Part shown: in pieces, positions 28,607 through 46,687 of the stretch
Numbering within the stretch: the stretch's first letter is position 1
How the letters are laid out: each line of letters starts with the position of its first letter
Assembly (NCBI GenBank): GCA_963666275.2
Contig: CAXXOA010000002.1
Location: 1,856,001 to 1,920,000 of the forward strand
DNA from: Oceanispirochaeta sp.
GTDB taxonomy: Bacteria; Spirochaetota; Spirochaetia; DSM-2461
Direction: 5' to 3'
Length of the DNA: 64,000 nt
Position numbers and translations under genes: made by a program
Notes under the pieces: generated by a model
Told to the model about the DNA's origin: nothing
What the model saw: only the letters and a program-made list of their open reading frames with translations
The model's database searches: none

Positions 28607-28653
28607 CCCGGTTCCTGTAATGCCGGGATTTATATTTTAAAAGGAGTTTTAAC

Positions 28654-29679: not shown

Positions 29680-29682
29680 ATC

Positions 29683-30450
29683 TTGGAAACACTGCTGGAA
29701 CTGAAAGATATCAGTGTCGACTTCCCGACAAAAAAAGGACTCCTTTCCGCTGTCAGCGATATTTCCATGACAGTGGAAAAGGGGGATTTTATTACCATTG
29801 TCGGGCCTTCGGGCTGCGGGAAATCAACCCTTCTCAATGTGATCGGAGGGTTCCTGCCCCCCACAGGGGGAGCCATTTCCGATAGAGAGGGGCCTGTGAC
29901 GGGGCCCAGCAGAAGCCGGGGGGTCGTTTTTCAGAAGCCCGCGCTCTATCCCTGGCTCAATATAGAGCAGAATGTAGCCTTCGGCCTGAAGGTGAACGGC
30001 ACAGGCAGAAAGGAAAGAAAAAAGATCGCCCTGGAAAATCTGGAACGGGTCAAACTTTCGGATTTTGCCCATATGCACTGCTATGAACTTTCCGGGGGGA
30101 TGCGCCAGAGGGTGGCTATCGCCAGAATCCTGGCCAATGATCCCGAGATTCTCCTGATGGATGAGCCCTTCGGGGCTCTGGATGTGCTCACCCGGGAGCA
30201 TATGCAGGAGGAACTTCTTAAGATATGGCGGGATACGGGTAAGACTGTTATTCTGATTACCCACAGTGTGGAAGAAGCGATTTATCTCTCTACAGAGGTC
30301 TACGTCATGTCTTCTCTTCCCGGCAGAATCATTAAAAAGGTGAAAACCCCTTTCAGTCGGGACTATAGTCATCTGGACAGCCGGAAGATCAAGTCACTTC
30401 CCGAGTTTGTCGCATTGAGGGAAGAAGTCCTCAGTTACATCTGGTTCTAG
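29683..30450 (+). CDS. tauB: Taurine/sulfonate ABC ATP-binding protein
   Basis: GPSGCGKS, RGVVFQ..ALYPWL, LSGGMRQR, TREHMQEELL, ITHSVEEA. Confidence 0.8.
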   Translation: METLLELKDISVDFPTKKGLLSAVSDISMTVEKGDFITIVGPSGCGKSTLLNVIGGFLPPTGGAISDREGPVTGPSRSRGVVFQKPALYPWLNIEQNVAFGLKVNGTGRKERKKIALENLERVKLSDFAHMHCYELSGGMRQRVAIARILANDPEILLMDEPFGALDVLTREHMQEELLKIWRDTGKTVILITHSVEEAIYLSTEVYVMSSLPGRIIKKVKTPFSRDYSHLDSRKIKSLPEFVALREEVLSYIWF

Positions 30451-31688: not shown

Positions 31689-31721
31689 TTTACAAAATAC
31701 ATAAGTCCTATTATCATACAA
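31689..31721 (+). promoter_or_regulatory. Sigma70 promoter of the tal operon overlapped by a FadR-type operator
   Basis: TTTACA-17 nt-TATCAT; TTATCATACAA at 31711-31721 (reverse complement TTGTATGATAA). Confidence 0.65.
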
Positions 31722-31779
31722 TTAGACATTAAGAAGATTACTTTAACTATTTTACGATATTTTACCAGGAGTATAGAAG

Positions 31780-32853
31780 ATGAGCGAAATGAGTCCGATG
31801 AAGAAAACCGTCAATCTCTGCGACGTTGAAGTATGGAACGATTCCTGTTCCATTGAAGAGCTGAATTATGCCGTAAGCCACGGTGCTTCAGGTGCTACCA
31901 CAAACCCTGTGATCGTACTGAACGTATTGAAACAGGAAATGCATATTTGGAAAGACAGGATCCTTGAAATTATCAAAGAGATGCCTACAGCTTCCGAAGT
32001 GGACATCTCCTGGAAACTGATCGAAGAAATGGCAGTTAAGGGTGCTGGAATCCTGAAACCTGTTTTTGACGAAACAAAGGGGAAAAAAGGCCGGATCTCA
32101 ATTCAGACCAATGCTCAGCTCTACCGTGATGCGGAAGCTATGGCGGAACAGGCCATCGGTTTCAATAAACTGGCTGAAAATATGATGGTTAAAATGCCTA
32201 CAACCGCTGCTGGAATCAAGGCTTTTGAAGAAGCGACCTACCACGGTGTGAATATAAATGCCACTGTAAGTTTTACCTGCCCCCAGGCGGTTCAGGTGGC
32301 TGAAGCCGTTGAAAGAGGTCTGAAAAGAAGAGAAGCTGAAGGCAAGGATATCTCTCATATGACACCGGTCTGTACAATCATGGTGGGACGGACTGATGAC
32401 TGGCTGAAAATCGTTGCGGGCAAAGAGAAAAAAGTTCCCACTCCGGGTGTCCTTGACTGGGCCGGAGTGGCTGTTTTCAAGAATGCCTACAGAATTTATA
32501 AGGAAAAAGGCTATAGAACCAGACTGCTTTCCGCCGCCTACAGAAACCACCTGCACTGGTCACAGCTGATCGGTGACGACATTGTTCAGACCATCCCCAG
32601 CAAGTGGCAGAAACTGTTCAATGCCAGTGATATCGAACCGGAAATCACAATAGATAAACCTGTTGATCCTGCTATCCTGGCAGAGTTGAAAACCTATCCC
32701 GAGTTTATAAAAGCCTATGAGCCCGATGGTATGACACCGGAAGAGTTTGAAACATACGGAGCAACAGCAAGAACCCTGAGAGGTTTCCTTGCCGGTTATT
32801 CCGAACTTCTCAGTGTTGTCAGAGATCTGATGATCCCGAATCCTGATGCCTGA
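31780..32853 (+). CDS. Transaldolase-family protein (atypical active site)
   Basis: WNDS, GATTNP, Schiff-base VKMP, NATVSF, MVGR, AAYR. Confidence 0.9.
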   Translation: MSEMSPMKKTVNLCDVEVWNDSCSIEELNYAVSHGASGATTNPVIVLNVLKQEMHIWKDRILEIIKEMPTASEVDISWKLIEEMAVKGAGILKPVFDETKGKKGRISIQTNAQLYRDAEAMAEQAIGFNKLAENMMVKMPTTAAGIKAFEEATYHGVNINATVSFTCPQAVQVAEAVERGLKRREAEGKDISHMTPVCTIMVGRTDDWLKIVAGKEKKVPTPGVLDWAGVAVFKNAYRIYKEKGYRTRLLSAAYRNHLHWSQLIGDDIVQTIPSKWQKLFNASDIEPEITIDKPVDPAILAELKTYPEFIKAYEPDGMTPEEFETYGATARTLRGFLAGYSELLSVVRDLMIPNPDA

Positions 32854-32878
32854 TCAGCCTTCTGAATAAGCTGTCAGG

Positions 32879-32908
32879 GAGGTAAAATCGCAGGATTTTA
32901 CCTCCTTT
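32879..32908 (+). terminator. Intra-operon stem-loop (weak terminator or mRNA stabiliser)
   Basis: GAGGTAAAATC-GCAG-GATTTTACCTC followed by CTTT. Confidence 0.55.
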
Positions 32909-32959
32909 GGAATTTTGAATTATCTGAAAGTGAATTGTAAATGATTGAGGAGTACATAC

Positions 32960-34342
32960 ATGTCTGATTATGTTAAAGGCCTTGTAGAGAGAGCCAGAAA
33001 AGCCCAGGCGGAAATTGAATTTCTGTCCCAGGAAAAAGTAGATGAAATCTGTGAACATATAGCCTGGACAACAGTTCAGGAACCCTTTGTGACCGAACTG
33101 GCCAAACTGGCTGTGGAAGAGTCCAGGATGGGGCTTTTTGAAAGCAAACACGGCAAAATGATGAACAAAGTCCGGGCCGGCTGGTTCGATATGAAAGGCA
33201 AGAAATCCGCCGGTGTGATTGAAGAAGATCCCGCCCTGGGACTGATCAAAATCGCCAAACCCGTAGGGGTTATCGGAGCCATGGTTCCCACCACCAATAA
33301 CGAAGCCACACCTGTACTGAAATCCATGAGCGCCATCAAAGGCAGAAATGCCATTATCCTGGCTCCCCATCCCCGGTCCATCAAAACCAATGAGATGGTT
33401 GTCAACAAAATGCGGGCGGTTCTGAAAAAACTGGGATATCCGGAAGATCTGATCATCCATGTGGATCAGGTGACCATGGAAAACTCCCAGGAGATCATGA
33501 AACAGTGCGATCTGGTTCTGGCAACCGGAGGAGCGGGCCTTGTTAAAACCGCCTATTCCAGCGGAACCCCCGCCTACGGTGTAGGAGCGGGAAATGCCGT
33601 TACCATCGTGGATGATACTCAGGATATGAAAGTTGTTGCCGACAAAATCAGACGTTCAAAAACTTTCGACATGGCCACAAGCTGTTCTGCCGAAAACTCC
33701 TGCCTGGCTCAGGATACGATCTATGAGGAACTCTGCAGCGCTCTGGAAGCCGAAGGCGGTTTCAGGGTGAAAGAGGCGGATAAGGGGAAGATTGAAAAAG
33801 CCCTCTGGCCCGACGGTGAGCATCTGAACCGGGACATCGTGGCTCAGCCTGCGGCAACCATTGCGAAGATCGCCGGCATCGAAGTTCCCGAAGGAACCAA
33901 TTTCTTCTTTGTGGAAGAGAGCGGAATCGGCGAGGGATACCCTCTGAGCGGTGAAAAACTGTCTGTAGTGATGACCCTCTATAAATGGAGCGACTTTGAC
34001 AAGGCCGTTCAGATGGTCAACGATATTACCAACTACTCCGGTGCTGGTCACTCCTGCGGTATCCATACCGAAAAGAAAGAGAGAATCCTTCAGCTGGCTG
34101 AGCAGGTAAAAGTGTCCCGCGTTATGGTCAATCAGCCTCACTGTCTTGCCAACAGCGGTGCCTGGACAAACGGTATGCCTACCACTCTGACTTTGGGCTG
34201 CGGTTCCTGGGGTGGAAACATCTCCAGTGAAAATATCACCTGGAAGCATCTGATCAACACCACCTGGGTTTCTTCTCCCATTGCCAACAGGCAGCCTACA
34301 GACGAGGAGTTATTCAGTGAGAGCGTCAGAAAAAGTGAGTAG
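32960..34342 (+). CDS. CoA-acylating aldehyde dehydrogenase (SauS/AdhE-N/EutE-like)
   Basis: AKPVGVI...PTTN, APHPR, ATGG.GLVK.AYSSGTPAYGVGAGN, SKTFDMATSCSAENS, SGEKLS, GHSCGIH, TLGCGSWGGN.SSEN. Confidence 0.9.
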   Translation: MSDYVKGLVERARKAQAEIEFLSQEKVDEICEHIAWTTVQEPFVTELAKLAVEESRMGLFESKHGKMMNKVRAGWFDMKGKKSAGVIEEDPALGLIKIAKPVGVIGAMVPTTNNEATPVLKSMSAIKGRNAIILAPHPRSIKTNEMVVNKMRAVLKKLGYPEDLIIHVDQVTMENSQEIMKQCDLVLATGGAGLVKTAYSSGTPAYGVGAGNAVTIVDDTQDMKVVADKIRRSKTFDMATSCSAENSCLAQDTIYEELCSALEAEGGFRVKEADKGKIEKALWPDGEHLNRDIVAQPAATIAKIAGIEVPEGTNFFFVEESGIGEGYPLSGEKLSVVMTLYKWSDFDKAVQMVNDITNYSGAGHSCGIHTEKKERILQLAEQVKVSRVMVNQPHCLANSGAWTNGMPTTLTLGCGSWGGNISSENITWKHLINTTWVSSPIANRQPTDEELFSESVRKSE

Positions 34343-35960
34343 AAAAGAAGCTAAATCCAACCTGCCTGAAGAGCAGGGAGGAAAGGCTGAACAGGCCCGG
34401 GAAATTCCCCGGGCCCATAAAGAGAGTCTGGCCAATATGGTCCGAGCCAAAGAGACCATGCTGGCCGGCGGGGGAGAGTCCCGTCAGGCGAAACAGCGGG
34501 CCAAAGGGAAAAAGACGGCCCGGGAAAGGATCAATTTTCTGGTGGACAAGGGCAGTTTCGTAGAGAATCAGCCCTATATGAAAAGCCGGAATGAAGACTT
34601 CGGGATGGATAAGAAGAAGTTCTTCGGCGATGGCGTTATCACGGGCAGTGCTCAGCTGGACGGCAGACAGATATGGCTATCCTCGCAGGATTTTACCGTA
34701 CTGGGCGGATCCCTGGGGGAGGCTCATGCCGCCAAAATTGCCAAAGCCCAGATGGAAGCCATGAAAACCGGAAAGCCCTTCATCTCGATCAACGATTCCG
34801 GCGGAGCCAGGATCCAGGAGGGAGTGCTCTCTCTGGAAGGGTACGGAAGCATCTTCCGGGCCAATACTCTGGCTTCGGGTGTGATCCCCCAGATGTCCAT
34901 TATCATGGGCCCCTGTGCGGGAGGCGCGGCCTACTCGCCGGCTCTGACAGACTTTGTTTTTATGGTGGATAAAACCAGCCATATGTATATTACCGGTCCC
35001 GACGTTATTAAAGCCGTTACCGGTGAAAATGTGACTCACGAAGCGCTGGGCGGGGCAGAAGCCCACAACAGTAAAAGCGGTAATGCCCATTTCCGCTGTT
35101 CCTCCGAAGAAGAGTGTCTCCTCACTCTCAGGCAGCTGTTGTCCTACCTGCCTTCGTCCAACAGGGAAAAACCCCCTGTGGTGGAGTGTACGGATGATGC
35201 CGAAAGGATTACAGGAGAGATCCTGCATATCCTGCCGGATAAAACCAACAGGCCCTATGATATCCGTCAGGTGATTGATCTGCTTTTTGATCAGTACAGC
35301 TTCCTTGAGGTTCATAAGGAGTTCGCTCCCAGTATGGTCGTCGGCTTTGCCAGGCTGAACGGCAGATCCGTGGGAATCATCGGGAATCAGCCCATGGTTT
35401 TTGCCGGTTCCCTGGACAAGGACTCCTCCGACAAGGCCGCGCGGTTCATCCGTTTCTGCGATTCCTTCGGCGTGCCTATAGTCTCTCTGGTGGATGTGCC
35501 CGGGTATATGCCAGGTACGGTTCAGGAGTACGGTGGAATTATCCGTCACGGAGCCAAGCTGCTCTATGCTATTGCGGAAGCCACGGTTCCCAAGGTGGCT
35601 CTGGTTCTCCGGAAAGCCTACGGAGGCGCCTATATCGGTATGGCCTCCAAAGCGCTGGGATATGACAGGGTTCTGGCCATGCCTATGGCAGAGATTGCTG
35701 TCATGGGAGCGGCGGGAGCGGCGAATATCATTTTCAGGAATGATATCAGTGCGGCCCGGGATCCCGAACTGATCCGGGAGATCAAGATCCATGAGTACCA
35801 GGAGAAGTTCATGAATCCCTATGCTGCGGCATCTCTGGGTATTGTGGACGATGTGGTGGATCCCGAATATATCCGGAGAGATCTGATCCGGTCTGTGGAA
35901 ATGCTCTCAGACAAGATGGAGGAACTCCCCCGCAAAAAACACGGGAATATTCCCCTGTAA
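34335..35960 (+). CDS. Acyl-CoA carboxyltransferase (PccB / methylmalonyl-CoA decarboxylase alpha-like)
   Basis: GK.TARERI, GDGVITG, QDFTVLGGSLG, DSGGARIQEG, GPCAGGAAYSPA, RKAYGGAY, KKHGNIPL; start uncertain (GTG overlapping the ALDH stop). Confidence 0.92.
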   Translation: MSRKEAKSNLPEEQGGKAEQAREIPRAHKESLANMVRAKETMLAGGGESRQAKQRAKGKKTARERINFLVDKGSFVENQPYMKSRNEDFGMDKKKFFGDGVITGSAQLDGRQIWLSSQDFTVLGGSLGEAHAAKIAKAQMEAMKTGKPFISINDSGGARIQEGVLSLEGYGSIFRANTLASGVIPQMSIIMGPCAGGAAYSPALTDFVFMVDKTSHMYITGPDVIKAVTGENVTHEALGGAEAHNSKSGNAHFRCSSEEECLLTLRQLLSYLPSSNREKPPVVECTDDAERITGEILHILPDKTNRPYDIRQVIDLLFDQYSFLEVHKEFAPSMVVGFARLNGRSVGIIGNQPMVFAGSLDKDSSDKAARFIRFCDSFGVPIVSLVDVPGYMPGTVQEYGGIIRHGAKLLYAIAEATVPKVALVLRKAYGGAYIGMASKALGYDRVLAMPMAEIAVMGAAGAANIIFRNDISAARDPELIREIKIHEYQEKFMNPYAAASLGIVDDVVDPEYIRRDLIRSVEMLSDKMEELPRKKHGNIPL

Positions 35961-36043
35961 ACGGTTTTACAGCCCCTGGAATCCGGGGGCTTTGAACACA
36001 CACAAATACTATTTAAAAAAGGTTTTAGAATTATTAGGTTTTA

Positions 36044-36096
36044 CCGGCACCAGCCCCCACTGCAGAGAGATCCTTCCGGGCTGGTGCCGGTTTTTT
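36044..36096 (+). terminator. Rho-independent terminator between the tal operon and the convergent fadR-like gene
   Basis: ACCGGCACCAGCCC...GGGCTGGTGCCGGT followed by a T-run. Confidence 0.75.
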
Positions 36097-36150
36097 GTCT
36101 TTCCGGGACCGGTTTGAAAGAAGGGCTTCTTTTGAATCTGTCAGAGAATC

Positions 36151-36867
36151 CTACTGTTTTCTGGGGATCTGAAGTCTGTTCTTGATATTCTCTATATGGG
36201 AGCTGAAGGTTTCTATGGACTGACTGACCTGTCCGCTCTTGATCGTATCTATTATGCTCTGATGCTCAAGGACAATCATTTCAGGGTTGGCATAGTCGCT
36301 CTGTGACTGATCGATCTCTTCCATCATGAAAGATCTCAGGGTTTTGTATATGGAGTAGAACAGGGTATTGCCTGTGCTTTTTACAATGATGTTGTGAAAA
36401 TTGTAATCCGCTTCTACCATATTGTCCCTCTGCCCGGCATCCAGGCTGAGTTTCATATGATTCACCTGTTCCTGCAGTTCCTTTATGATGGACGTCAGTT
36501 TTTCAGGATTGGCGATATACTGGTGAGTGAGGGTTATGATGCTCCATAACTCGATGGCACCCCTGGTTTCTATGAGTTCCTGCTGTTCATCCTTGCCAAG
36601 GAGGATCGACCATGAGAGAGCTTCCTGGGAAATGTTGGCCCTATCAGAGAGAAAGGTTCCTTTGGCTGCCTTTGATTCAAGAACACCCAGATAGTTGAAG
36701 ATCTTGATAGCCTCTCTGATGGAGGACCGGCCGATGCCGAATCTCTCGGCAAGTTCATTTTCAGTAGGGAGCTTGTCTCCGGGTTTGTATTTTCCCGAAG
36801 CAATAAGATCTTTTATGTGCTCCATTACCTGTTCAACAACTGTCTTTTGCTTGATCTTCTTCACCAT
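36151..36867 (-). CDS. GntR/FadR-family regulator with FCD domain
   Basis: KPGDKLPTENELAERFGIGRSSIREA...KGTF; AD..FH..I...TGN, EHQ.II; AGGAG RBS. Confidence 0.93.
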   Translation of the reverse strand: MVKKIKQKTVVEQVMEHIKDLIASGKYKPGDKLPTENELAERFGIGRSSIREAIKIFNYLGVLESKAAKGTFLSDRANISQEALSWSILLGKDEQQELIETRGAIELWSIITLTHQYIANPEKLTSIIKELQEQVNHMKLSLDAGQRDNMVEADYNFHNIIVKSTGNTLFYSIYKTLRSFMMEEIDQSQSDYANPEMIVLEHQSIIDTIKSGQVSQSIETFSSHIENIKNRLQIPRKQ

Positions 36868-36877
36868 CTGAAAACTC

Positions 36878-36894
36878 CTATTGTATGACAATAG
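36878..36894. promoter_or_regulatory. Perfect FadR-type palindrome just upstream of the fadR RBS
   Basis: CTATTGT-ATG-ACAATAG. Confidence 0.75.
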
Positions 36895-36983
36895 TACATT
36901 TTAGGGGATAGTGCAAGTGAAACCTCAGGAAATAGGGGTTGGTTTTTTTTAAAGTATCGATTTCTGAGAGCTTTCCGGAAAGA

Positions 36984-36997
36984 GACAAACGTTTCCG
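36984..36997. promoter_or_regulatory. LacI-type operator (auxiliary)
   Basis: Reverse complement CGGAAACGTTTGTC shares 12 nt with the site at 37189. Confidence 0.6.
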
Positions 36998-37148
36998 ATA
37001 ATAGAGAAAAATATATCGATAATTTATGCTTCTAATCAGCCCCGGTTCGGGGGTGAAAATTTAATTTCGTCAGATTGTATGATATAATATTAAAGATATA
37101 TATAGTATGTAATTAAACAATATTTGACTGATTGTTTAAAATTTTTTC

Positions 37149-37202
37149 TTGACAGATCTGAGAAACCGTTGTGATAATGTACACATACCGGAAACGTTTG
37201 CG
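37149..37202 (+). promoter_or_regulatory. Sigma70 promoter of the inositol ABC operon with a downstream LacI-type operator
   Basis: TTGACA-18 nt-GATAAT, then CGGAAACGTTTGCG at 37189-37202. Confidence 0.7.
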
Positions 37203-37269
37203 TAGATCCGGAAGGCACGGCAGAAAAAATTGAACTGCCGAACGCCAAAAAAGGTAGGAGGAATTATTT

Positions 37270-38208
37270 ATGAAAAAGCTCTTAACAGTTCTTTTGGGTA
37301 TCGGTTTAATTACCGGTGCTGTATTTGCAGAAGGACAGAAAGAAGCAGATGGTTTCAAGGTCGGATATGTATGTAACAATTTCAACGATACATTTCAGAC
37401 TTATGTAATGGATGCGGCTGAAGCGTATTACGATGGTGTTGCTGATGTTGAAATTATTCTGCAGGACTCTGTAGAGGATGTTATTCGTCAGCAGGATATG
37501 GTAAATACTCTGATTGCTCAGAAAGTGGATGCTCTGATTGTTGTTCCTGTAGATACGAGTGCAATGGAACCTATCGTTAGAGCTGCTGCTGAAGCAGACA
37601 TCCCCCTCTGTTTTGTAAACAGAAACCCCTATGCCGGAAAAGATCTTCCTGAAAATGTCTACTATGTTGGATCACAGGAAGTTATTGCCGGTCAGCAGCA
37701 GATGAATTACATGGGTGAACTTATGGGCGGAGAAGGCGGAGTTGCCATCCTGATGGGAAAACTGGACAACGAAGGTGCCCTGAAAAGAACTGAAGGTAAT
37801 GAATCTGTAATTGCAGAAAAATATCCTAACATCGACATCCTGGCAAAAGAAACCGGAAACTGGCAGCGTGACCAGGGAATGGTTCTTACCGAAAACTGGC
37901 TGACCGCTTACGGTGCAGACCTGAAAGGTATCCTGGCCAACAATGACGAAATGGCTCTCGGTGCTGTAGAAGCTCTGAAAGCTGCGGGAAGAGAAGATAT
38001 CTATGTAATGGGTGTTGATGCAATTCCCGATGCCAAAGAAGCCGTTGGCAGCGGTGAACTGGCTGCTACTGTTCTGCAGGATGCTGTAGGTCAGGGCGAA
38101 GGTGCTGCAAAACTGATTCATAGTGTATTGATGGGTGAAACAGTGGATTCCCTCGTTTGGGTACCCTTTGTACTGATAACACCTGAAAATCTTGCTGACT
38201 TCCAGTAA
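37270..38208 (+). CDS. Sugar ABC substrate-binding protein (RbsB-like, probably inositol)
   Basis: KVDALIVVPVDT, FVNR, YVGS, GNWQRD, ANNDEMALGA, GVDA, TVLQD; iol context. Confidence 0.88.
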   Translation: MKKLLTVLLGIGLITGAVFAEGQKEADGFKVGYVCNNFNDTFQTYVMDAAEAYYDGVADVEIILQDSVEDVIRQQDMVNTLIAQKVDALIVVPVDTSAMEPIVRAAAEADIPLCFVNRNPYAGKDLPENVYYVGSQEVIAGQQQMNYMGELMGGEGGVAILMGKLDNEGALKRTEGNESVIAEKYPNIDILAKETGNWQRDQGMVLTENWLTAYGADLKGILANNDEMALGAVEALKAAGREDIYVMGVDAIPDAKEAVGSGELAATVLQDAVGQGEGAAKLIHSVLMGETVDSLVWVPFVLITPENLADFQ

Positions 38209-38272
38209 GAGATAATTAAAAAGGGGAAAGGCTTTTCAGGAGTGTTTTCCCCTTTTTTTACGGGAGAGAATA

Positions 38273-39790
38273 ATGGCAGAGGAAAAATATATCCTGGAAA
38301 TGACGGATATTGTTAAAACATTCCCCGGTGTACAGGCCCTGAAAGGGGTTCAGCTTAAGGTTCGTCCCGGTGAGATTCATGCTCTCATGGGAGAGAATGG
38401 AGCCGGTAAATCAACACTGATGAACTGTCTGGCCGGTGTTCACAGCCAGACTTCAGGTACAATCCTGTACGATGGTGAAGTTCGTGAACAGTATAATACA
38501 ATTGAAGCCCTGAATATGGGGATTTCCATGATTCATCAGGAATTGAGTCCTGTACTTCATAGACCGATCATGGAGAATATCTGGCTTGGTAGAGAGCCCC
38601 TAAACAAATTCGGTCTTGTCGATCATCAGAAAATGTACGAAATGAGCCTTGAAGTTCTGAAGGAAATTGATCTGGATGTGGACCCCAGGCTTGAAATGGT
38701 TAATCTTACAGTAGCTAAAATGCAGATGATTGAAATCGCCAAGGCAATTTCATTCAATTCAAAACTGATTATTATGGATGAACCGACATCCGCTCTTGCT
38801 GATAAGGAAATTAAACAGCTTTTTACCCTGATGAGGAAACTCCGGGCAAGTGGAAAAAGCATTATATACATATCTCATAAACTGGATGAGGTTTATGAGA
38901 TTACCGACAGGATCTCTGTCTTCCGGGATGGAACCTACATCGGAACCGATGATACGGATAAACTGACCGAGGAAAAGCTTATCAATATGATGGTAGGCCG
39001 GGATGTGGATGAACTGTTTCCCAAGGAGGCATGTCCTATCGGGGATGTAAAACTGGAAGTGAAAAATCTGACTCACAGCAGATATTTCAATGATGTCTCC
39101 TTTACAGTCCGAAAAGGGGAGATCCTGGGAATCGCCGGATTAATCGGAGCCGGCCGAACCGAAGTGATTGAAACAATTTTCGGTATCAGGGACAAAGTTT
39201 CCGGTGAAATCCTTATAGACGGCAAGCCGGTAGACATTCTTTCTCCCCGGGATGCTATTGAAAATAAGATGGCTCTTCTGACAGAAGACCGGAGGCATTC
39301 GGGTATCTTCCCCATGCTTTCAGTCGGTGTGAATATGGCGATCTCTACATTTCCCAAGTTTATGAACAAGCTGGGACTTATCCGGGATCGGGATGTGAAG
39401 AAAGAGTGTGATGACTATGTTAAGAAAGTACAGGTCAAAACACCCAGTCTGAATCAGAGAGTCGAGAATCTTTCCGGTGGTAACCAGCAGAAAGTACTGG
39501 TATCCCGCTGGCTTATGACAAATCCGGAGATTCTTTTTCTGGACGAACCCACAAGAGGTATCGATGTGGGGGCAAAATCGGAAATCCACAGGCTTATAAC
39601 CAAACTGGCAGGAGAGGGCAAGTCTATTGTCATGGTCTCTTCCGAGCTCCCTGAGGTTATGGGAATGAGTGACAGGATCATGATAATGCATGAAGGAAAA
39701 GTCACTGGTATCGTTGATAACAGGGACGATCTGACTCAGGAAGAATTAATGACTTATGCTACAGGCAAAGCTGGGAAGAAAGGGGCGTAA
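38273..39790 (+). CDS. Sugar ABC ATP-binding protein (CUT2, MglA/RbsA-like)
   Basis: GENGAGKST, DEPTS, LSGGNQQKV, DEPTRGIDVGAK, SSELPE. Confidence 0.95.
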   Translation: MAEEKYILEMTDIVKTFPGVQALKGVQLKVRPGEIHALMGENGAGKSTLMNCLAGVHSQTSGTILYDGEVREQYNTIEALNMGISMIHQELSPVLHRPIMENIWLGREPLNKFGLVDHQKMYEMSLEVLKEIDLDVDPRLEMVNLTVAKMQMIEIAKAISFNSKLIIMDEPTSALADKEIKQLFTLMRKLRASGKSIIYISHKLDEVYEITDRISVFRDGTYIGTDDTDKLTEEKLINMMVGRDVDELFPKEACPIGDVKLEVKNLTHSRYFNDVSFTVRKGEILGIAGLIGAGRTEVIETIFGIRDKVSGEILIDGKPVDILSPRDAIENKMALLTEDRRHSGIFPMLSVGVNMAISTFPKFMNKLGLIRDRDVKKECDDYVKKVQVKTPSLNQRVENLSGGNQQKVLVSRWLMTNPEILFLDEPTRGIDVGAKSEIHRLITKLAGEGKSIVMVSSELPEVMGMSDRIMIMHEGKVTGIVDNRDDLTQEELMTYATGKAGKKGA

Positions 39791-39794
39791 AAAA

Positions 39795-40802
39795 ATGTCT
39801 GCAACGGAAAACATTTTAAAGTTGAATAAAGCGGGATACAAAGAGATCCTGCAGAAATACGGTATCGTTTTTGTTCTGATTCTGATGATCATCGGTATCA
39901 GTATTGTGGAACCTGCTTTTTTGAGCAGTACGAATATTTTCAATGTAATGACTCAGTCCGCCATCTTCGGAATTATGGCTCTGGGACTCACATTCGTTAT
40001 CATTTCAAAGGGAATTGACCTCTCTGTAGGTTCTGTTCTGGCTTTTGCCGGTGTTGTTGCCGCCAGTCTGGCTCAGACTGCCGAAGCGACGGGTAAGTAT
40101 TTCCCCAACCTTCCGGTAATGCCTGTGATTGTTCCGATCGCGGCTGCTCTGGCAGTGGGTGCCGCCTGTGGTGCTGTTTCGGGAGCCCTGATTGCGAAAA
40201 CAAAGATCCCGGCGTTTATTTCCACTCTGGGTATGATGACCGTGGCCAGAGGTTTCGCTCTGATCTACTCTGATGGTAAACCCGTCAGTACCCTGATACC
40301 TTCCATGACCAGACTGGGTGGTAAACTCTGGGGATTCCTTCCCATTCCCGTTCTGATCTACTTTATTATGATTGTTGTCAGTTCCATACTGCTGAACAAA
40401 ACCAGATTCGGGAAAAGTGTTTACGCAGTCGGTGGAAATATTAAAGCGGCAGAAGTTTCAGGAGTTAATGTAAGCAGAACCCTAATTCTGATTTTTGCCT
40501 ACAGCGGTTTCCTGGCGGGACTGGCAGCGGTTGTATTTGCAGGCCGTGTAGGTTCTGTCCATCCCGGTGCGGCTTTCGGTTATGAGCTGACTGCTATTGC
40601 GGCTACCACCATCGGTGGTACCAGCCATTCCGGCGGTATCGGTACAATCTGGGGTGCTTTTGTCGGAGCTATGGTTCTGGCTGTTCTCAGAAACGGTCTG
40701 ACCCTTCTGGGGGTTGATGCCTACTGGCAGCAGGTTACCGAAGGTGTTATCATTGTTGTTGCTGTTATCATCGACATGAGAAAGAACTCTAAAAAAGACT
40801 AA
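39795..40802 (+). CDS. Sugar ABC permease (RbsC-like)
   Basis: [42 protein letters not shown]. Confidence 0.95.
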
Positions 40803-40833
40803 TTAAAAAGATAATTTTTAAAGGATTGTTACT

Positions 40834-41847
40834 ATGGAAAAAGTAAGAATCGGCTCTGTAGGCCTGGGCCGCCTGGGATTGCAGCATGCTGAAAATATCG
40901 CTACCAAAGTGATGGGTGCGGAATTAACGGTTCTGTGCGATCTGAATACGGCCCTGCTGAACGAGACTGCTGACAGATTGAATGTTAAATACCGCTGCAG
41001 CAGTTTTGAGGAGATGATAGCTATTGATGAACTGGATGCCGTTGTCATAGTTTCCCCCTCGGGTCTGCATACAGCTCAGATTTCTGCTGCTCTGGCAGCA
41101 GGGAAGCATGTATTTTCCGAAAAACCCCTGGGAATTTCTGTTTCAGAATGCCAGGATGCGGAAAAAGCCGTTGAGAAACACAGTGATAAGGTTTTCATGC
41201 TGGGCTTTATGCGCCGGTTTGATGAATCCTATATGTATGCCCATCAGAAAGTAGTGGACGGTGAGATCGGAAAGCCCGTGCTTTTCCGTTCCTACAGCCA
41301 GGATCCGGAAAAGTTTATTGACGGAGCCATCGCTTTTGCCGGTCACAGCGGCGGGCAGTTTCTGGATATGGCAGTGCATGACATTGATCTGGCCCGGTGG
41401 TTTCTGAACTCCGAGCCGGTCAATGTGACTGCCATGGGCGGCTGTTATGCCCATCCCGAGTTTGGTCAGTACAAAGACGGAGACAATGTTTCCTGTCTGA
41501 TGCAGTTTGAAAACGATGCGATGGTTTTTCTGTTTGCAGGAAGAACAGCTCCCCATGGGTATAATGTGGAGACCGAAATCATAGGGACAGAGGGCATTCT
41601 GAGAATCGCTTCGGTTCCCCAGAAGAACCTGGTGGAAGTCCTGGATTCAAACGGAGTCAGGCGTGAGTGCAGTCAGAATTTTCTGGAACGGTTCAAAAGC
41701 TCCTATGTGAATGAGATTCAGGAGTTTGTGGACTGCATCAGGGAAGGAAGAAAACCGGAAGTTTCCGTTTATGACGGAACAGCAGTTTCAAGGATTGCCT
41801 ATAAGTGCAAAGAGTCTTTTGAGACGGGGAAACAGCTGAGGTTTTAA
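40834..41847 (+). CDS. iolG: Gfo/Idh/MocA oxidoreductase, inositol 2-dehydrogenase-like
   Basis: GLGRLG..HA, HVFSEKP, LGFMRRFD, SGGQFLDMAVHDID, HGYNVETEI. Confidence 0.75.
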   Translation: MEKVRIGSVGLGRLGLQHAENIATKVMGAELTVLCDLNTALLNETADRLNVKYRCSSFEEMIAIDELDAVVIVSPSGLHTAQISAALAAGKHVFSEKPLGISVSECQDAEKAVEKHSDKVFMLGFMRRFDESYMYAHQKVVDGEIGKPVLFRSYSQDPEKFIDGAIAFAGHSGGQFLDMAVHDIDLARWFLNSEPVNVTAMGGCYAHPEFGQYKDGDNVSCLMQFENDAMVFLFAGRTAPHGYNVETEIIGTEGILRIASVPQKNLVEVLDSNGVRRECSQNFLERFKSSYVNEIQEFVDCIREGRKPEVSVYDGTAVSRIAYKCKESFETGKQLRF

Positions 41848-41849
41848 TA

Positions 41850-42875
41850 ATGAAATCATCCCAGGTCACCATTAAGGATATTGCTGAGATTGCAGGGGTC
41901 AGTTTCTCTACAGTCTCCCGTTCTCTGAATAACAGCGGACAGGTCTCGGAAAAAACAAGAACACGAATCTGTAAAATAGCCGAAGACCTGGGATTTGAAT
42001 TCAATGCCGGAGCCAGAAGTATGATCACCAGCCGTTCAGGAACGGTTGGGATCGTTCTTCCCGAACAGTATACCCTGATTAATGTCAATGTGTATCACGG
42101 CATGCTTATGAACAGTTTGAGAACCTATCTTGAAAAAGCGGATATGGATCTTATCGTGACCTACCAGAAAAATCATTTCAACCAGAACAATAATATTAAA
42201 AGACTCATCACAAGAAAGAAAATCGACGGACTGATTCTGCTGGAGGAGTTCATCGAGGAAGAGACTCTGTCCTTTCTGAAAGCCAGGAATTTTCCCTTTG
42301 TCTGCATCCACTATCCTCCGTCTCCTCTTGTAAAAGATGAAGAGGTGGTGTTTACGGATCATTACACCGGGGGCGTCCTGGTGGCGGAACATCTTCTCAG
42401 TCTGGGAAAGACATCCTTTCTTCTGCTGACAGAAGGAGATCCCCATCAGGAGTTTGTGCTCCGGGAGAGGGGATTTACCGAGACTGTCAATAAAGCGGGG
42501 TACAGGTTTAAACGTCTTGTAGCGCATTTGAACTATCATGATGCGGTGGATCTGATGAGGGAGAATATCCGCTTCGCCAGAGGTGCCGATGCGATCTTTG
42601 CTATAAATGACCTGATGGCTATGGGAGCCATGACAGTACTCAGGGACGAGGGATACAGGATCCCCGAGGATATTGCCGTGGTGGGATACGATGATTCCGA
42701 GTTCGCCCGGTACAGTTCTCCCACTCTGACATCGATTCATCAGCCCCGGGAAGAGCTGGCTCATATCTCCTGTGACAGGCTTTTTATGCAGATGGAAAAA
42801 CAGAGACAGAAAGAGCAATACTATAAAAAACGAATCAGTATTCAACCTGTCCTGATAAAAAGAGAGTCAACCTGA
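41850..42875 (+). CDS. LacI-family transcriptional regulator
   Basis: TIKDIAEIAGVSFSTVSRSLN, NDLMAMG, IPEDIAVVGYDD, PTLTSI.QP. Confidence 0.95.
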   Translation: MKSSQVTIKDIAEIAGVSFSTVSRSLNNSGQVSEKTRTRICKIAEDLGFEFNAGARSMITSRSGTVGIVLPEQYTLINVNVYHGMLMNSLRTYLEKADMDLIVTYQKNHFNQNNNIKRLITRKKIDGLILLEEFIEEETLSFLKARNFPFVCIHYPPSPLVKDEEVVFTDHYTGGVLVAEHLLSLGKTSFLLLTEGDPHQEFVLRERGFTETVNKAGYRFKRLVAHLNYHDAVDLMRENIRFARGADAIFAINDLMAMGAMTVLRDEGYRIPEDIAVVGYDDSEFARYSSPTLTSIHQPREELAHISCDRLFMQMEKQRQKEQYYKKRISIQPVLIKREST

Positions 42876-42913
42876 AGGCGGGTGACCGGACTTGAAATCT
42901 CTGAATCTTCTGC

Positions 42914-42942
42914 TTGAATGTCAGACAATATTATGTTAGGAT
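42914..42942 (+). promoter_or_regulatory. Internal promoter for iolBDE overlapped by a FadR-type operator
   Basis: TTGAAT-17 nt-TAGGAT; ATGTCAGACAA at 42918-42928 (reverse complement TTGTCTGACAT). Confidence 0.6.
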
Positions 42943-42967
42943 AATAGTCACTCCAAGGAGGTTTGAT

Positions 42968-43786
42968 TTGGTAGAAAGACGACATGATAATATAGAATCC
43001 GGTTATATCTCCATAACCGAGGAAGAGGGAAAAAACTCAGAGATGCTTCTGGATTTCGGGCTCCTCAAGCTGAAAGCCGGAGAGTCCTGGAGCAGTGATG
43101 ATTCCCGCAGGGAAAGAGCCTTTAACCTGATACAGGGAACAGTCACATTCGAATGGGAAGGACACAGTGAAACTGTGACAAGAACATCCTGTTTTGATGA
43201 AGCCCCCTTTGTACTTCACGTGGCAAAAGGGGTAAACGTGATACTCTCTGCCGGAACGGAAGCGGAACTGGCCGTGGAAGCCAAGAAAAACGAAACAGAT
43301 TTCCCTTCCAAATTTTACAGGCAGGAAGATATACGCAGCGATATATTCGGCGGCGGAATCATGAATGATACAGCAAAGCGGACTGTCCGTACTGTATTTG
43401 ACGGAGAAATAGCCCCCTATTCCAATATGGTTATGGGAGAGGTTATCAATCATCCGGGAAAATGGTCCAGCTACCCCCCTCATCACCATCCTCAGCCTGA
43501 GATCTATCACTACAGGCATTTTCCTCAGGAGGGATTCGGCGTCTCTCTGATCGACGAGGATCCTTTCTATGTGAAAAACGGCGATACCACCCTGATTCCG
43601 GGAGGGAAAACCCACTCTCAGGTTGCCGGTGCCGGGTATGCCATGTTCTATATCTGGATGATCCCTCATCTGGAAGGAGACCGTTGGCTGCCAACAACAC
43701 GCTATTTTGTAAAAGAACATGAATGGCTCAAAGAGCCGGGCGTAAAAATTTGGCCCGAATTGAAATACGGGGAGGAACATAAATAA
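42968..43786 (+). CDS. iolB: 5-deoxy-glucuronate isomerase (IolB/KduI family)
   Basis: [44 protein letters not shown] before TTG. Confidence 0.85.
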
Positions 43787-45720
43787 TGGGAACAACCAGA
43801 ATGACAGTCGCTCAGGCGCTTGTGAAATTTCTGAATCAGCAGTATCTGGAATTCGACGGAGAAGTCCATCCTTTTGTTGAAGGTATCTTCACAGTTTTCG
43901 GCCATGGAAACGTGGTCGGTCTGGGACAGGCTCTTGAAGAGGATCCCGGACATCTTAAAGTTCACCAGGGACGGAATGAACAGGGAATGGCTCATGCCGC
44001 TATGGGTTTTGCCAAACAGAATCACAGGCGGAAAATCTATGCGGCCACCTCGTCTGTCGGGCCCGGTGCCGCCAATATGGTGACTGCGGCGGCAACGGCA
44101 ACTGCCAATAGAATTCCCGTTCTCCTGCTTCCGGGCGATACCTATGCCACAAGACAGCCTGATCCGGTTCTGCAGCAGATGGAACAGTTTCACGATCTGA
44201 CACTTACGACAAATGATGCCTTCCGTGCTGTTTGTAAATACTGGGACAGAATCAACCGGCCGGAGCAGCTTATGAGTGCCATGATAAGCGCCATGAGAAC
44301 CCTGACTGATCCGGCAATGACAGGAGCCGTTGCCGTCTGTCTTCCCCAGGATGTTCAAGGTGAGGCTTACGACTACCCGGATTACTTCTTTCAGAAACGG
44401 ATTCACCGGCTGGAAAGAACGGCACCCACTGAAGCTATGGTAGCCGAAGCGGTGGCTTTGATCAAAAAGAAGAAAAAGCCCATGCTTATATGCGGCGGCG
44501 GGGTAAGATACTCAGAGGCCGGTCAGGAGCTGATCAAATTCGCCGAAGAGTTCAATATTCCCTATGCCGAAACCCAGGCCGGCAAGAGCGCCACCCTCTA
44601 TTCCCATCCCCTGAATATCGGAGGAGTCGGAACAACAGGTTGTCTGGCGGCCAATACTCTGGGACAGGAGACCGATCTTGTTATCGGTGTGGGTACCAGA
44701 TACACAGACTTTACCACCGCTTCCAAATGGCTCTATCAGAATCCCGATGTGGATTACGTGAACATCAATATTGCCTCTTTCGACTCCTATAAAATGGATG
44801 CCGTCCGGGTAACCGCCGATGCGAAAGCCGCCCTGGCAGCCATCAGGGAAGCCCTGGTGAAAGAGGGATATAAATCATCCTATACCACTGAAATCAAAGC
44901 GGCCAAAGAGGAGTGGGACAAAGAGCTGGACCGTCTTTTCCATCTGGAATACACAGGTCCCGGATTCAGTCCTGAGATCAAAGACAGCCTGACCGATGCT
45001 CTGGAGGAGTACAGTCAGTTCCTGGGGACAAAACTCACTCAGACCAGAGTCCTGGGGATCCTTGACGAAATTATGGAAGACAGTGATATCTGCGTTGGCG
45101 CCTCCGGTTCCCTTCCCGGTGACCTGCAGCGGGTCTTCCGGGCAAAAAGCGAACGGTCCTATCATATGGAGTACGGCTACTCCTGTATGGGTTACGAGAT
45201 CAACGCGGCTCTGGGAGCCAAAATGGCAGAGCCCGGAAGAGAAGTCTATACCTATGTGGGAGACGGTTCTTTTATGATGCTCCACTCAGAGCTTGTCACT
45301 TCTCTCCAGGAAGGTCTCAAAATCAACGTTGTTGTTTTTGACAACGTGGAATTCGGCTGCATCAACAATCTGCAGCAGGAGAGAGGACAGGGCAGCTTCG
45401 GAACAGAGATGAGGAAGCGGAACCCCGCTTCGGGAAAACTGGACGGTGAACTGGTTTACGTGGATTTTGCCAAAATCGGTGAAGGCTACGGCTGTAAAAC
45501 CTATACTGTAAAAAATGAAGAAGAGCTGAGAGCCGCTGTGGAAGATGCAAAAAAGCAGACTGTATCGACTGTTATCGACATTAAAGTTCTGCCTAAAACC
45601 ATGACAGACGGTTACAAGGGATTCTGGAGATGCGGTCAGGCCGAAGTGGCGAAAAAAGCTTCTGTTGTGGAAGAAACCCGCAATATGAAAGAAGAGCTTA
45701 AAAAAGCAAGACAGTACTGA
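43786..45720 (+). CDS. iolD: 3D-(3,5/4)-trihydroxycyclohexane-1,2-dione acylhydrolase
   Basis: [53 protein letters not shown] motif GDGSF...N. Confidence 0.97.
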
Positions 45721-45739
45721 TTCGACTGTGAAGCAGCAA

Positions 45740-45772
45740 TTTTCCTGAAGAGACCTGTCTCTTCAGGAAATT
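45740..45772. other. Long intergenic hairpin between iolD and iolE
   Basis: TTTCCTGAAGAGAC-CT-GTCTCTTCAGGAAA. Confidence 0.6.
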
Positions 45773-45793
45773 TAACGTAAAAAGAGGATAAAA

Positions 45794-46687
45794 ATGAATA
45801 AGCAGAATGTTAAACTCGGTATGGCCCCTATCGGCTGGACCAATGACGACATGCCCGATCTCGGGTCGGAAAACACCTTTCAGCAGTGTGTGAGTGAAAT
45901 GGCTCTGGCCGGATATACCGGTTCCGAAGTAGGAAGCAAATACCCCAAAGATCCTGCCGTACTCAAGGAATACCTGGATATCCGGGGCATTCAGATCTGT
46001 AACCAGTGGTTCAGTTCCTTTCTCTGCTCTCAGCCCTATGAACAGGTGGAAAAGGATTTCCGCTCTCAGCTGACATTCCTGAAAGCTCTGGGAGCTGATG
46101 TGATCGGACCCTCCGAACAGACCCGCTCCTGCCAGGGACAGCTGGATGTCTCTGTATTTTCAGGAAAGGCCATGTTTTCTGACGAAGAGTTTAAAAAGCT
46201 GACACAGGGCATGAACAAGCTGGGACATATTGCGAAAGAAGAGGGTATGAAACTGGCTTTCCATCACCATATGGGGACAGGAGTACAGACTATTGAAGAA
46301 ACGGAACGTTTTCTCAATGACACTGATCCGGACAAGGTTTACCTTCTCTTCGATTCAGGCCACTTTGCCTTTTCTCAGGAAGATCCCATTGCGGCTCTGA
46401 AAAAGTTTATCTCCCGGGTGGGCCATGTCCATCTGAAAGATATGCGGGGCGAAGTCTATAAAAAGGTTAAAGCGGCAGACAGCTCCTTCCTGGACGCCGT
46501 ACGGGCCGGTGTATTCACAGTTCCCGGTGACGGCGATGTGGATTTCCCCTCGATCTTTAAAATCCTGGATGAGAATAACTACAAAGGCTGGATGGTTGTA
46601 GAGGCTGAACAGGATCCTGCCAAGGCGAATCCTTTCAAATACTCCAAAATGGCCCGCGGTTATATCCGCGAGTTTGCCGGAATCTGA
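45794..46687 (+). CDS. iolE: 2-keto-myo-inositol (myo-inosose-2) dehydratase
   Basis: APIGWTNDDMPDLG, SEMALAG, HHHMGT, HVHLKD, FTVPGDG, VEAEQDP. Confidence 0.97.
   Translation: MNKQNVKLGMAPIGWTNDDMPDLGSENTFQQCVSEMALAGYTGSEVGSKYPKDPAVLKEYLDIRGIQICNQWFSSFLCSQPYEQVEKDFRSQLTFLKALGADVIGPSEQTRSCQGQLDVSVFSGKAMFSDEEFKKLTQGMNKLGHIAKEEGMKLAFHHHMGTGVQTIEETERFLNDTDPDKVYLLFDSGHFAFSQEDPIAALKKFISRVGHVHLKDMRGEVYKKVKAADSSFLDAVRAGVFTVPGDGDVDFPSIFKILDENNYKGWMVVEAEQDPAKANPFKYSKMARGYIREFAGI

Follow-up and report, generated by a model that had tools for sequence, protein, structure and literature searches.

A Probable Kinase-Free Route of myo-Inositol Catabolism Built on a Transaldolase-Like Enzyme in Oceanispirochaeta

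Introduction

Myo-inositol, which comes from phytate and lipids, is plentiful as a carbon source in soils, sediments and guts, and its catabolism is taught as one pathway. In the canonical version, known from Bacillus subtilis and Salmonella, the enzymes IolG, IolE, IolD and IolB lead to 2-deoxy-5-keto-D-gluconate (DKG), which is phosphorylated by IolC and cut between C3 and C4 by the aldolase IolJ or a DUF2090 protein, and the malonate semialdehyde (MSA) released is turned into acetyl-coenzyme A (acetyl-CoA) in the single decarboxylating step of the MmsA-type enzyme IolA. The present work concerns a 64-kb stretch of the genome of an Oceanispirochaeta sp. (C2:1856001–1920000, hereafter the window), in which orthologs of IolG, IolE, IolD and IolB lie next to a three-gene operon for a transaldolase-like enzyme (Tal), a CoA-acylating aldehyde dehydrogenase (ALDH) and a carboxyltransferase (CT). 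Judged from sequence comparisons, these three enzymes probably complete the breakdown of inositol along an undescribed route that needs no kinase and may save energy. The same bond of the DKG skeleton would be cut, with the same end in MSA and acetyl-CoA, but IolC, IolJ/DUF2090 and MmsA-type IolA are missing, the substrate of the cleavage would be unphosphorylated, and the IolA step would be replaced by an acylating oxidation and a biotin-dependent decarboxylation.

Each of the three proposed steps has a parallel among described systems. The enzyme of structure 8bc3 (BmSF-TAL) is, as we take it, the sulfofructose transaldolase SftT/SqvA of sulfo-TAL sulfoglycolysis. As proposed for Tal, it performs a kinase-free cleavage of an unphosphorylated anionic ketose on the transaldolase/fructose-6-phosphate aldolase (TAL/FSA) fold, passes the dihydroxyacetone unit to glyceraldehyde-3-phosphate (GAP) and lets out an anionic C3 aldehyde. 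It is, however, a TalC/FSA-type protein of about 226 amino acids (aa) which matches the 357-aa Tal weakly and partially (35 bits), and its substrate carries a sulfonate tail where that of Tal would carry a carboxylate. In the Na+-translocating methylmalonyl-CoA decarboxylase (MmdABCD) and in the biotin-dependent malonate decarboxylase of Malonomonas rubra, an MmdA/12S-type carboxyltransferase transfers the free carboxyl group of a (methyl)malonyl thioester to biotin, and carboxybiotin is then decarboxylated by a membrane beta subunit that pumps Na+. A similar set, composed of CT, a gamma-like open reading frame (ORF), a biotin carrier (BCCP) and OAD-beta, forms one operon at a Pelolinea locus (L032, see below), whereas the CT of the window has no BCCP or beta subunit at its side, would act on malonyl-CoA made from an aldehyde, and reaches 751 bits with the mmdA model TIGR01117 (cut-off 999). 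The ALDH shares with SauS, SucD (8cei) and malonyl-CoA reductase taken in reverse the EutE/AdhE-N type, the catalytic Cys and the choice of short anionic aldehydes, but it falls under the SauS equivalog cut-off and MSA is its proposed substrate.

In annotation tools and surveys (PMC9430895 and PMC9007349), inositol users are defined by iolBCDE or by IolC/IolJ, and a 2022 survey defined clusters by iolBCDE. By such definitions, organisms with a Tal variant are scored as incomplete. The GapMind study gives IolJ and DUF2090 as the only aldolases for phosphorylated DKG, and reports 8 out of 26 inositol utilisers with neither. For Dysosmobacter, PMC13311982 puts forward a class II aldolase together with an oxoacid dehydrogenase, and PMC12130570 places talB in a pentose-phosphate context only. 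An earlier reading of the window from its sequence (the original prediction) knew of no description of the route. No description was found in the literature searched (subscription journals not covered): no paper joined a transaldolase to DKG or to iol genes, and no inositol phenotype was recorded for the genera that carry Tal.

Genomic Context of Tal Homologs

Relatives of Tal were collected by scanning one genome per species with a 14-member subfamily alignment. The scan yielded at least 587 stretches, and the best 80 loci, all from species other than that of the window, were kept. Their neighbors were identified within ±10 kb by tblastn with the window proteins (at least 50% coverage). IolD was found beside Tal in 41 of the 80 loci, IolB in 32, and IolE and IolG in 31 each, many of the loci without IolD linkage being short contigs. 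Since IolD was present in only 16 of 401 sampled Spirochaetota genomes, this pairing is far beyond chance. The IolD-linked loci spanned eight phyla (Spirochaetota, Chloroflexota, Acidobacteriota, Actinomycetota, Bacteroidota, Bacillota, Myxococcota and Verrucomicrobiota), and the predicted co-occurrence of the Tal subfamily with iolB, iolD and iolE, and also one with iolG, was confirmed across them, usually inside the operon. The ALDH was beside Tal in 11 loci and the CT in six; six loci had Tal, ALDH and CT together.

Nine loci from several phyla were annotated with Pfam (136 ORFs). Each of the nine had Tal in the midst of iol genes, and none encoded a PfkB, class II aldolase or DUF2090 domain. 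The gene order is SBP (substrate-binding protein), ABC, permease, IolG, LacI, ALDH, IolB, IolD, Tal, IolE, IolG in Petroclostridium sp. X23; symporter, Tal, IolB, IolD, Aldedh, IolE, IolG in a Bacteroidales metagenome-assembled genome (MAG); and LacI, IolB, Tal, IolD, Aldedh in a Terriglobia MAG. In L024, the closest relative of the window, Tal-ALDH-CT abuts the iol transporter directly, with no regulator between.

A quick maximum-likelihood tree of 89 rows, whose topology conflicts with phylum boundaries, showed the iol linkage scattered over the whole Tal subfamily with at least 15 changes, and one clade of 35 rows contained 29 IolD-linked members. A monophyletic inositol clade of Tal was rejected on account of this scatter. 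In our reading the iol association is old and pervasive in the subfamily, the gene moves with iol clusters, and some lineages have recruited Tal for other ketoses.

Absence of the Canonical Lower-Pathway Genes

The analysed genome (5.27 Mb in 3 contigs, 97% complete) was searched as a whole with family models. No IolC passed the cut-off (best TIGR04382 score 119.5 bits against 300; ten PfkB-family matches lay under the IolC cut-off), DUF2090 (PF09863) gave no match, and no methylmalonate-semialdehyde dehydrogenase (MMSDH)/IolA passed the TIGR01722 cut-off (best 257.6 bits against 448.5, at C2:1116698). The single class II fructose-bisphosphate aldolase gene (PF01116) is on a different contig from the iol cluster. 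At these cut-offs, the absence of IolC and MmsA-type IolA noted for the window holds for the whole genome.

The 80 Tal loci were searched with the IolC, IolJ-like and MMSDH proteins of genome G285. The IolJ-like aldolase was found in none of them, and IolC in two of the 41 IolD-linked loci (L050 and L056, confirmed by the curated model on whole genomes), which were also the only two of the 80 with PfkB matches. Genome-wide, IolC passed its cut-off in 5 of 30 genomes with Tal and iol genes (G285, G293, G412, G416 and G418) and was absent from the other 25. By comparison, it passed in 7 of 12 Spirochaetota that have IolD without Tal, and two more of these had a near-miss and a fragmented gene. 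These tallies are counts and not statistics, on account of MAG incompleteness and kinship among genomes. The mutual exclusion of Tal and IolC is strong but not absolute. Of the predicted anti-correlation with iolC and iolJ, the part on IolJ stood in all 80 loci and that on IolC in 25 genomes, and its strict form was rejected as both genes are present in 5 of the 30.

The Active Site of Tal

Tal passes PF00923 (Table 1) but scored under every NCBIfam transaldolase cut-off, the best being PRK03343 (119.6 bits against 367), and the fructose-6-phosphate aldolase model TIGR00875 gave 50.5 bits (cut-off 246). Its identity to E. coli TalB and FsaA is 26% and 21%, respectively. The fold and several active-site residues are common to these proteins: the Schiff-base Lys K132 of TalB is K138 in Tal, D17, N35, N154 and T156 correspond to D21, N42, N160 and T162, and both anion-binding Arg are kept (R181 as R204, R228 as R255). 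In contrast, the catalytic E96 of TalB is Q109 in Tal, a Gln as in FSA (Q59), and the position of F178 in TalB and Y131 in FSA is occupied by M201. Both Q109 and M201 were invariant in the alignment of 14 subfamily members. Tal is thus set apart from classical TalB-type transaldolases by Gln109 and Met201 in place of Glu96 and Phe178, and from FSA, with which it shares the Gln, by Met201 at the Tyr position and a length of 357 aa compared to about 220 aa. A Neisseria transaldolase, the closest relative of solved structure (67 bits), retains the canonical Glu and Phe. Judged by these residues, Tal is a catalytically distinct member of the TAL/FSA fold.

The analysed genome contains three TAL/FSA paralogs, Tal included, which rules out Tal as its sole housekeeping transaldolase. 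A purely housekeeping Tal is also unlikely from the operon position and the altered active site.

The second long paralog (343 aa, of the Gln type in the alignment; C2 ~2193–2198 kb, L114:2966–7868) is located downstream of separate PPDK_N and PEP-utilizer proteins and upstream of an AraC regulator. The third, of 222 aa and FSA/TalC-sized, adjoins a TRAP transporter (C1 ~220–227 kb, L115:1165–8422). Genes for one more acylating ALDH and for an ADP-forming (SucCD-like) CoA ligase run divergently from this paralog, and the locus looks like a further kinase-free module that would cleave an anionic ketose, acylate the product and make ATP.

The ALDH as a Substitute for IolA

The best NCBIfam match of the ALDH was SauS (NF047625, 519.9 bits against a cut-off of 600), and its best solved relative the acylating succinate-semialdehyde dehydrogenase 8cei (335 bits). 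It is 38% identical over 440 aa to the N-terminal domain of E. coli AdhE, and its catalytic Cys is aligned with a Cys that is presumably C246 of AdhE. By these alignments the ALDH is a member of the CoA-acylating EutE/AdhE-N/SucD/SauS group. The characterised enzymes closest to it use short aldehydes with an anionic group, namely sulfoacetaldehyde, an isostere of MSA, and succinate semialdehyde.

The distribution of this enzyme beside Tal was compared with that of MMSDH-like proteins, defined by at least 40% identity to reference proteins, of which that of G285 passes TIGR01722. An MMSDH-like gene was next to Tal in 18 of the 80 loci and the acylating ALDH in 11, and none had both. The MMSDH beside Tal was over the TIGR01722 cut-off in G239, G285 and G293, and the ALDH was inside the iol operon in Petroclostridium (L062) and Pelolinea (L032). 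This mutual exclusion indicates that MSA would be the product of Tal and that the ALDH would consume it. The apparent non-orthologous displacement of MMSDH by ALDH is the best evidence for MSA as the Tal product, and it agrees with the proposal that the ALDH fills the missing IolA step.

In two Anaerolineaceae Tal-iol loci (L033, 15821–19436, and L039), a tungsten-type aldehyde:ferredoxin oxidoreductase was found in the place of MMSDH or ALDH, with an Fe-ADH beside it in L033. It would be a third way to dispose of malonate semialdehyde.

The Carboxyltransferase and Its Partners

The CT passes PF01039 (621.7 bits) and has the two-domain carboxyltransferase fold; scores with the solved structures 1vrg and 1on3 (12S transcarboxylase) were 637 and 582 bits. 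An Ile in the segment AYGGAYIGM is aligned with chain residue 422 of 1xnw (Ile) and 3iav (Val), two deposited PccB variants, and the position is also Ile in 7w5u, a chain annotated as acetyl-CoA carboxylase beta. We assume the rule of the S. coelicolor PccB/AccB work to be that Asp at 422 makes the enzyme propionyl-specific and a hydrophobic residue directs it to acetyl/malonyl-CoA. The Ile would then favour acetyl/malonyl-CoA over propionyl/methylmalonyl-CoA for the CT.

In the Pelolinea locus L032, a CT, an OAD-gamma-like ORF (weak, 19 bits against a cut-off of 27), a BCCP (70 bits) and OAD-beta (493 bits) are divergent from IolB-IolD-Tal-ALDH. This operon supports a malonyl-CoA decarboxylation coupled to Na+ export, with the partner assumed to exist in the organism of the window. 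The prediction that the CT converts malonyl-CoA to acetyl-CoA gained from the Ile at position 422 and from the L032 pump operon, but it did not hold for the CT alone, because a biotin carrier and a decarboxylase or a second carboxyl acceptor are required. In the analysed genome, an OadA-like alpha subunit with two tandem biotinyl domains adjoins OAD-beta at C2 ~312.9–316.2 kb (L113:6851–10190). A GTP-type PEP carboxykinase is encoded just downstream of this pair on the opposite strand.

A second ALDH-CT copy was found at C2 ~852.7–855.7 kb, with protein identities of 97% (ALDH) and 90% (CT). At the DNA level the two copies are homologous from precisely the start codon of the ALDH onwards, and the homology extends over the terminator. 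The second copy is downstream of two FAD-binding (FAD_binding_4) oxidases and a CCG iron-sulfur protein, and these oxidases may oxidise a hydroxy acid (3-hydroxypropionate?) to an aldehyde used by the ALDH-CT module. The pair is probably a portable module which serves any route yielding an aldehyde of the malonate semialdehyde type. In the region of the second copy (L121:5094–12681, C2 ~848.1–855.7 kb), a TetR/FadR-like regulator precedes these genes, and DUF6198 and a sigma-54 activator follow them.

At C1:343596–347300 (minus strand), PF01039 and biotinyl matches were observed in frames of ~1830–1840 aa, with one in-frame TAG inside the CT match. This may be a giant fused carboxylase, interrupted or recoded.

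Proposed Pathway

DKG (HOOC-CH2-CHOH-CHOH-CO-CH2OH) can be read from its C6 end as a ketose whose C1 hydroxyl is free and whose C3/C4 configuration is D-threo, as in fructose. Its C4-C5-C6 part is a dihydroxyacetone unit, so that cleavage at the bond cut by transaldolases leaves exactly malonate semialdehyde. We propose that inositol, after entry through the ABC importer, is converted to DKG by IolG, IolE, IolD and IolB. K138 of Tal would engage unphosphorylated DKG in a Schiff base at the C5 keto group, and cleavage of the C3–C4 bond would free MSA. The bound dihydroxyacetone unit would most likely be transferred to GAP, giving fructose-6-phosphate, and the glycolytic enzymes phosphofructokinase and fructose-bisphosphate aldolase would thereby stand in for IolC and IolJ. 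The ALDH would convert MSA, CoA and NAD(P)+ to malonyl-CoA, and acetyl-CoA would remain once the CT had moved the free carboxyl of malonyl-CoA onto a biotin carrier. A Na+-pumping subunit of the OAD-beta type would decarboxylate the carboxybiotin, and the energy wasted by IolA would be conserved; alternatively, the carboxyl could be transferred to pyruvate. The two transcription units would be connected through the regulators (GntR/FCD and LacI) and through an operator-like motif common to both.

On balance, we regard the region as a complete non-canonical system of myo-inositol catabolism in which Tal, ALDH and CT finish the pathway, and consider this reading to be rather probable. The kinase-free role given to Tal in the original prediction found support in comparative genomics, through the gene absences, the linkage and the exclusivity of MMSDH and ALDH. 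A wider proposal, for which we would claim somewhat less than an even chance, is that a kinase-free branch is widespread (beside IolD in at least eight phyla), with a Gln-type TAL/FSA enzyme transferring to GAP and, in anaerobes such as the Oceanispirochaeta sp., the conversion of MSA to malonyl-CoA followed by a biotin-dependent Na+ pump that conserves energy. If this is true, functions would be assigned to a large unstudied TAL/FSA subfamily (at least 587 relatives), to an acylating ALDH and to a carboxyltransferase. It would be a second kinase-free transaldolase pathway beside sulfoglycolysis, and the Na+-coupled decarboxylation of malonyl-CoA would conserve energy in inositol fermentation. 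Petroclostridium sp. X23 and Anaerovirgula multivorans SCA are among the cultured carriers of Tal.

Alternative Explanations

Tal could be a true aldolase, similar to FSA, which splits DKG into MSA and free dihydroxyacetone, the latter being phosphorylated to dihydroxyacetone phosphate (DHAP) by a dihydroxyacetone kinase. Gln109 of the subfamily matches Gln59 of FSA and not Glu96 of TalB, and the analysed genome has two Dak1 genes, one of them ~22 kb upstream of the window start. Yet the catalytic Tyr131 of FSA is replaced by the invariant Met201, and no dihydroxyacetone kinase gene was found in the nine annotated Tal-iol loci. Dak1 was present in only 4 of 7 kinase-free genomes with Tal and iol genes, a count which includes MAGs and does not decide between transfer and release. 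We consider free release unlikely. If Tal instead acted as a class I aldolase on DKG-6-phosphate, giving DHAP and MSA, it would replace IolJ only, and the kinase would be IolC or an unrecognised enzyme. Loci L050 and L056, in which IolC is beside Tal and no IolJ-like or DUF2090 gene is in the locus, have the gene content expected from such an arrangement, and the analysed genome has the ten PfkB-family matches under the IolC cut-off. This explanation appears most improbable, as IolC was missing over its cut-off from 25 of the 30 genomes and no kinase of any family was recurrent in the nine annotated loci. Furthermore, the donors of TAL/FSA enzymes have an unmodified hydroxyl at C1, and 1-phosphates are not known to serve them as donors.

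It is also conceivable that the three-gene operon is unrelated to inositol, with a Tal for housekeeping or another substrate and an ALDH-CT pair for another aldehyde, for instance sulfoacetaldehyde arising through the nearby taurine-like transporter or the product of the second-copy oxidases. The position next to the iol genes would then be fortuitous. SauS is the best family model of the ALDH, taurine-like ABC genes are nearby (27818–30450), the second ALDH-CT copy follows FAD oxidases elsewhere in the genome, and some Tal homologs are in genomes without iol genes. We nevertheless judge this very unlikely. Tal is linked to iol genes in 41 of the 80 loci, which span 8 phyla, Tal-ALDH-CT is directly against the iol transporter in L024, and a motif is common to the Tal and iol promoter regions. 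An opposite-strand GGDEF gene separates the taurine-like genes from the Tal operon, and a search upstream of it revealed no taurine aminotransferase, Xsc or other enzyme that forms sulfoacetaldehyde. On chemical grounds, sulfoacetyl-CoA is not the malonyl-type thioester that the CT requires. The sulfonate version fails on these last two points, the missing enzyme and a CT without a role.

Several observations weigh against the kinase-free inositol route itself, or narrow its scope. A single operon of G285 contains IolJ-like, IolC, IolB, Tal, MMSDH, ABC, IolD, IolE and IolG genes, so that the canonical and Tal routes can coexist; L050 and L056 carry IolC beside Tal, and G412 has it elsewhere. 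Among the 401 Spirochaetota, 4 of the 8 Tal-positive genomes were without IolD (G080, G120 and G127, of one family, and G231), and in one of the four with IolD this gene was truncated at a contig end. Five further genomes had Tal away from iol genes, with IolD elsewhere in three and none in two, and IolE was found in none of the six IolD-negative Tal genomes. Part of the subfamily must therefore have another role. In IolD-negative genomes Tal was alone or beside other genes, including an acylating ALDH in G120. Genomes without IolD and IolE (G080, G120, G127, G401 and G405) each had four to seven TAL/FSA-family matches, many in frames of 360–440 aa, a pattern that points to a radiation of Tal-like enzymes towards other substrates. 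G239 and G410 have no TAL/FSA gene besides the Tal embedded among their iol genes, which leaves room for a pentose-phosphate role.

Further points on the same side concern the enzymes. With Gln for the catalytic Glu and Met for the Tyr of FSA, the acid/base chemistry of Tal may be unlike that of either reference enzyme, and with the Gln both transfer to GAP and release of dihydroxyacetone are conceivable. Neither the ALDH with the SauS model nor the CT with the mmdA model reaches the cut-off, and by sequence the substrates of both are candidates. The Tal-ALDH-CT operon of the window contains no biotin carrier or beta subunit, and the use of the distant OadA/OadB module by the CT is a guess. 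The ALDH-CT pair is not inositol-specific, as the second copy is in an unrelated operon. Finally, a search of sequencing runs found the window sequence in two DNA runs of one study and in no RNA run.

Regulation

The operator-like motif of the Tal promoter region, TATCATACAAT, recurs as its complement ATTGTATGATA between the GntR and transporter genes (Table 1), and a copy with one mismatch is present at position 36880. In the closest relatives L024, L029 and L044, the motif TATCA[T/G]ACAAT (at most one mismatch) is located 56, 31 and 78 bp upstream of Tal, respectively. In L024 it is also upstream of the SBP gene and in the LacI–IolB gap. Three matches were counted in 25.7 kb upstream of Tal, compared to 24 in 1326 kb elsewhere in the loci. 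This suggests, with modest weight, one regulon for the Tal and iol units in this lineage. GntR/FCD homologs near Tal were 44–55% identical in 7 spirochaete loci and 24–29% in 3 more.

Organization of the Locus

Gene identities in the window were assigned from an ORF map and two family scans (Pfam and NCBIfam cut-offs). All genes named in the original prediction were recovered at their positions, and the features are listed in Table 1. By family assignment, the upper pathway (IolG, IolE, IolD and IolB) appears complete. The support for IolB comes from Pfam only, as TIGR04378 gave 91 bits, below the cut-off of 205. The importer is presumed to take up inositol, and its genes are 80–89% identical to those at the same position in L024.

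Table 1. Features of the Tal and iol transcription units (positions in the window).
Feature	Position	Strand	Basis or remark
Promoter-like site upstream of Tal, TTTACA-17-TATCAT	31689–31717	+	-10 overlaps motif TATCATACAAT
Motif TATCATACAAT (11-mer)	31712–31722		Overlaps -10 of the Tal promoter-like site
Tal, transaldolase-like, 357 aa	31780–32853	+	PF00923, 145.6 bits (cut-off 27)
Perfect 12-bp hairpin, loop GCAG (32878–32905), then T-rich tract, between Tal and ALDH	32878–32917	+	Read from sequence
CoA-acylating ALDH, 460 aa from ATG 32960	32960–34342	+	Longest ORF from 32945
Carboxyltransferase (CT), PccB/MmdA/12S type, 507 aa from ATG 34437	34437–35960	+	Longest ORF from 34281
Strong intrinsic terminator, 14-bp GC-rich stem (36043–36056 with 36078–36091), then T-run	36043–36096	+	Closes the Tal-ALDH-CT operon
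GntR/FCD (FadR-type) regulator	36151–36891	-	Family scans
Operator-like motif ATTGTATGATA	37074–37084	+	Complement of the Tal-promoter word; GntR-transporter intergenic region
Promoter-like site ahead of iol transporter genes, TTGACA-18-GATAAT	37149–37178	+	11/12 matches
SBP of sugar-type ABC importer	37270–38208	+	Family scans
ABC ATPase of importer	38273–39790	+	Family scans
ABC permease of importer	39756–40802	+	Family scans
IolG, inositol 2-dehydrogenase	40834–41847	+	TIGR04380, 370.8 bits (cut-off 355)
LacI-family regulator	41850–42875	+	Family scans
IolB-like 5-deoxy-glucuronate isomerase (makes DKG)	42914–43786	+	PF04962, 175 bits
IolD, ring-opening ThDP hydrolase	43786–45720	+	TIGR04377, 941 bits (cut-off 715)
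IolE, inosose dehydratase	45794–46687	+	TIGR04379, 411 bits (cut-off 290)

The ALDH probably starts at ATG 32960, where a ribosome-binding site (GAGGAG) precedes the codon and the alignment of the paralog begins. For the CT, ATG 34437 is the most likely start: solved homologs align from this position, and the DNA identity to the paralog is only 64% across 34310–34457. The hairpin between Tal and ALDH is a possible attenuator or partial terminator.

Upstream of the Tal operon, two sets of NitT/TauT-family (taurine/sulfonate-like) ABC transporter genes (17755–20248 and 27818–30450, plus strand) were observed, all under equivalog cut-offs. No sulfonate-degrading enzyme was recognised around these transporters in the window. 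Between the two sets are a CoA-disulfide-reductase-like protein (24750–26450) and a YedE-like membrane protein (26462–27739). On the other side, the gene after IolE (46951–49881, plus strand) encodes a 976-aa protein with a receiver (REC) match of 26.7 bits (Pfam cut-off 30.2) and a PPDK_N domain. It was considered as a hidden DKG kinase and rejected, as no homolog was present in 87 Tal loci, and it probably belongs to unrelated signalling.

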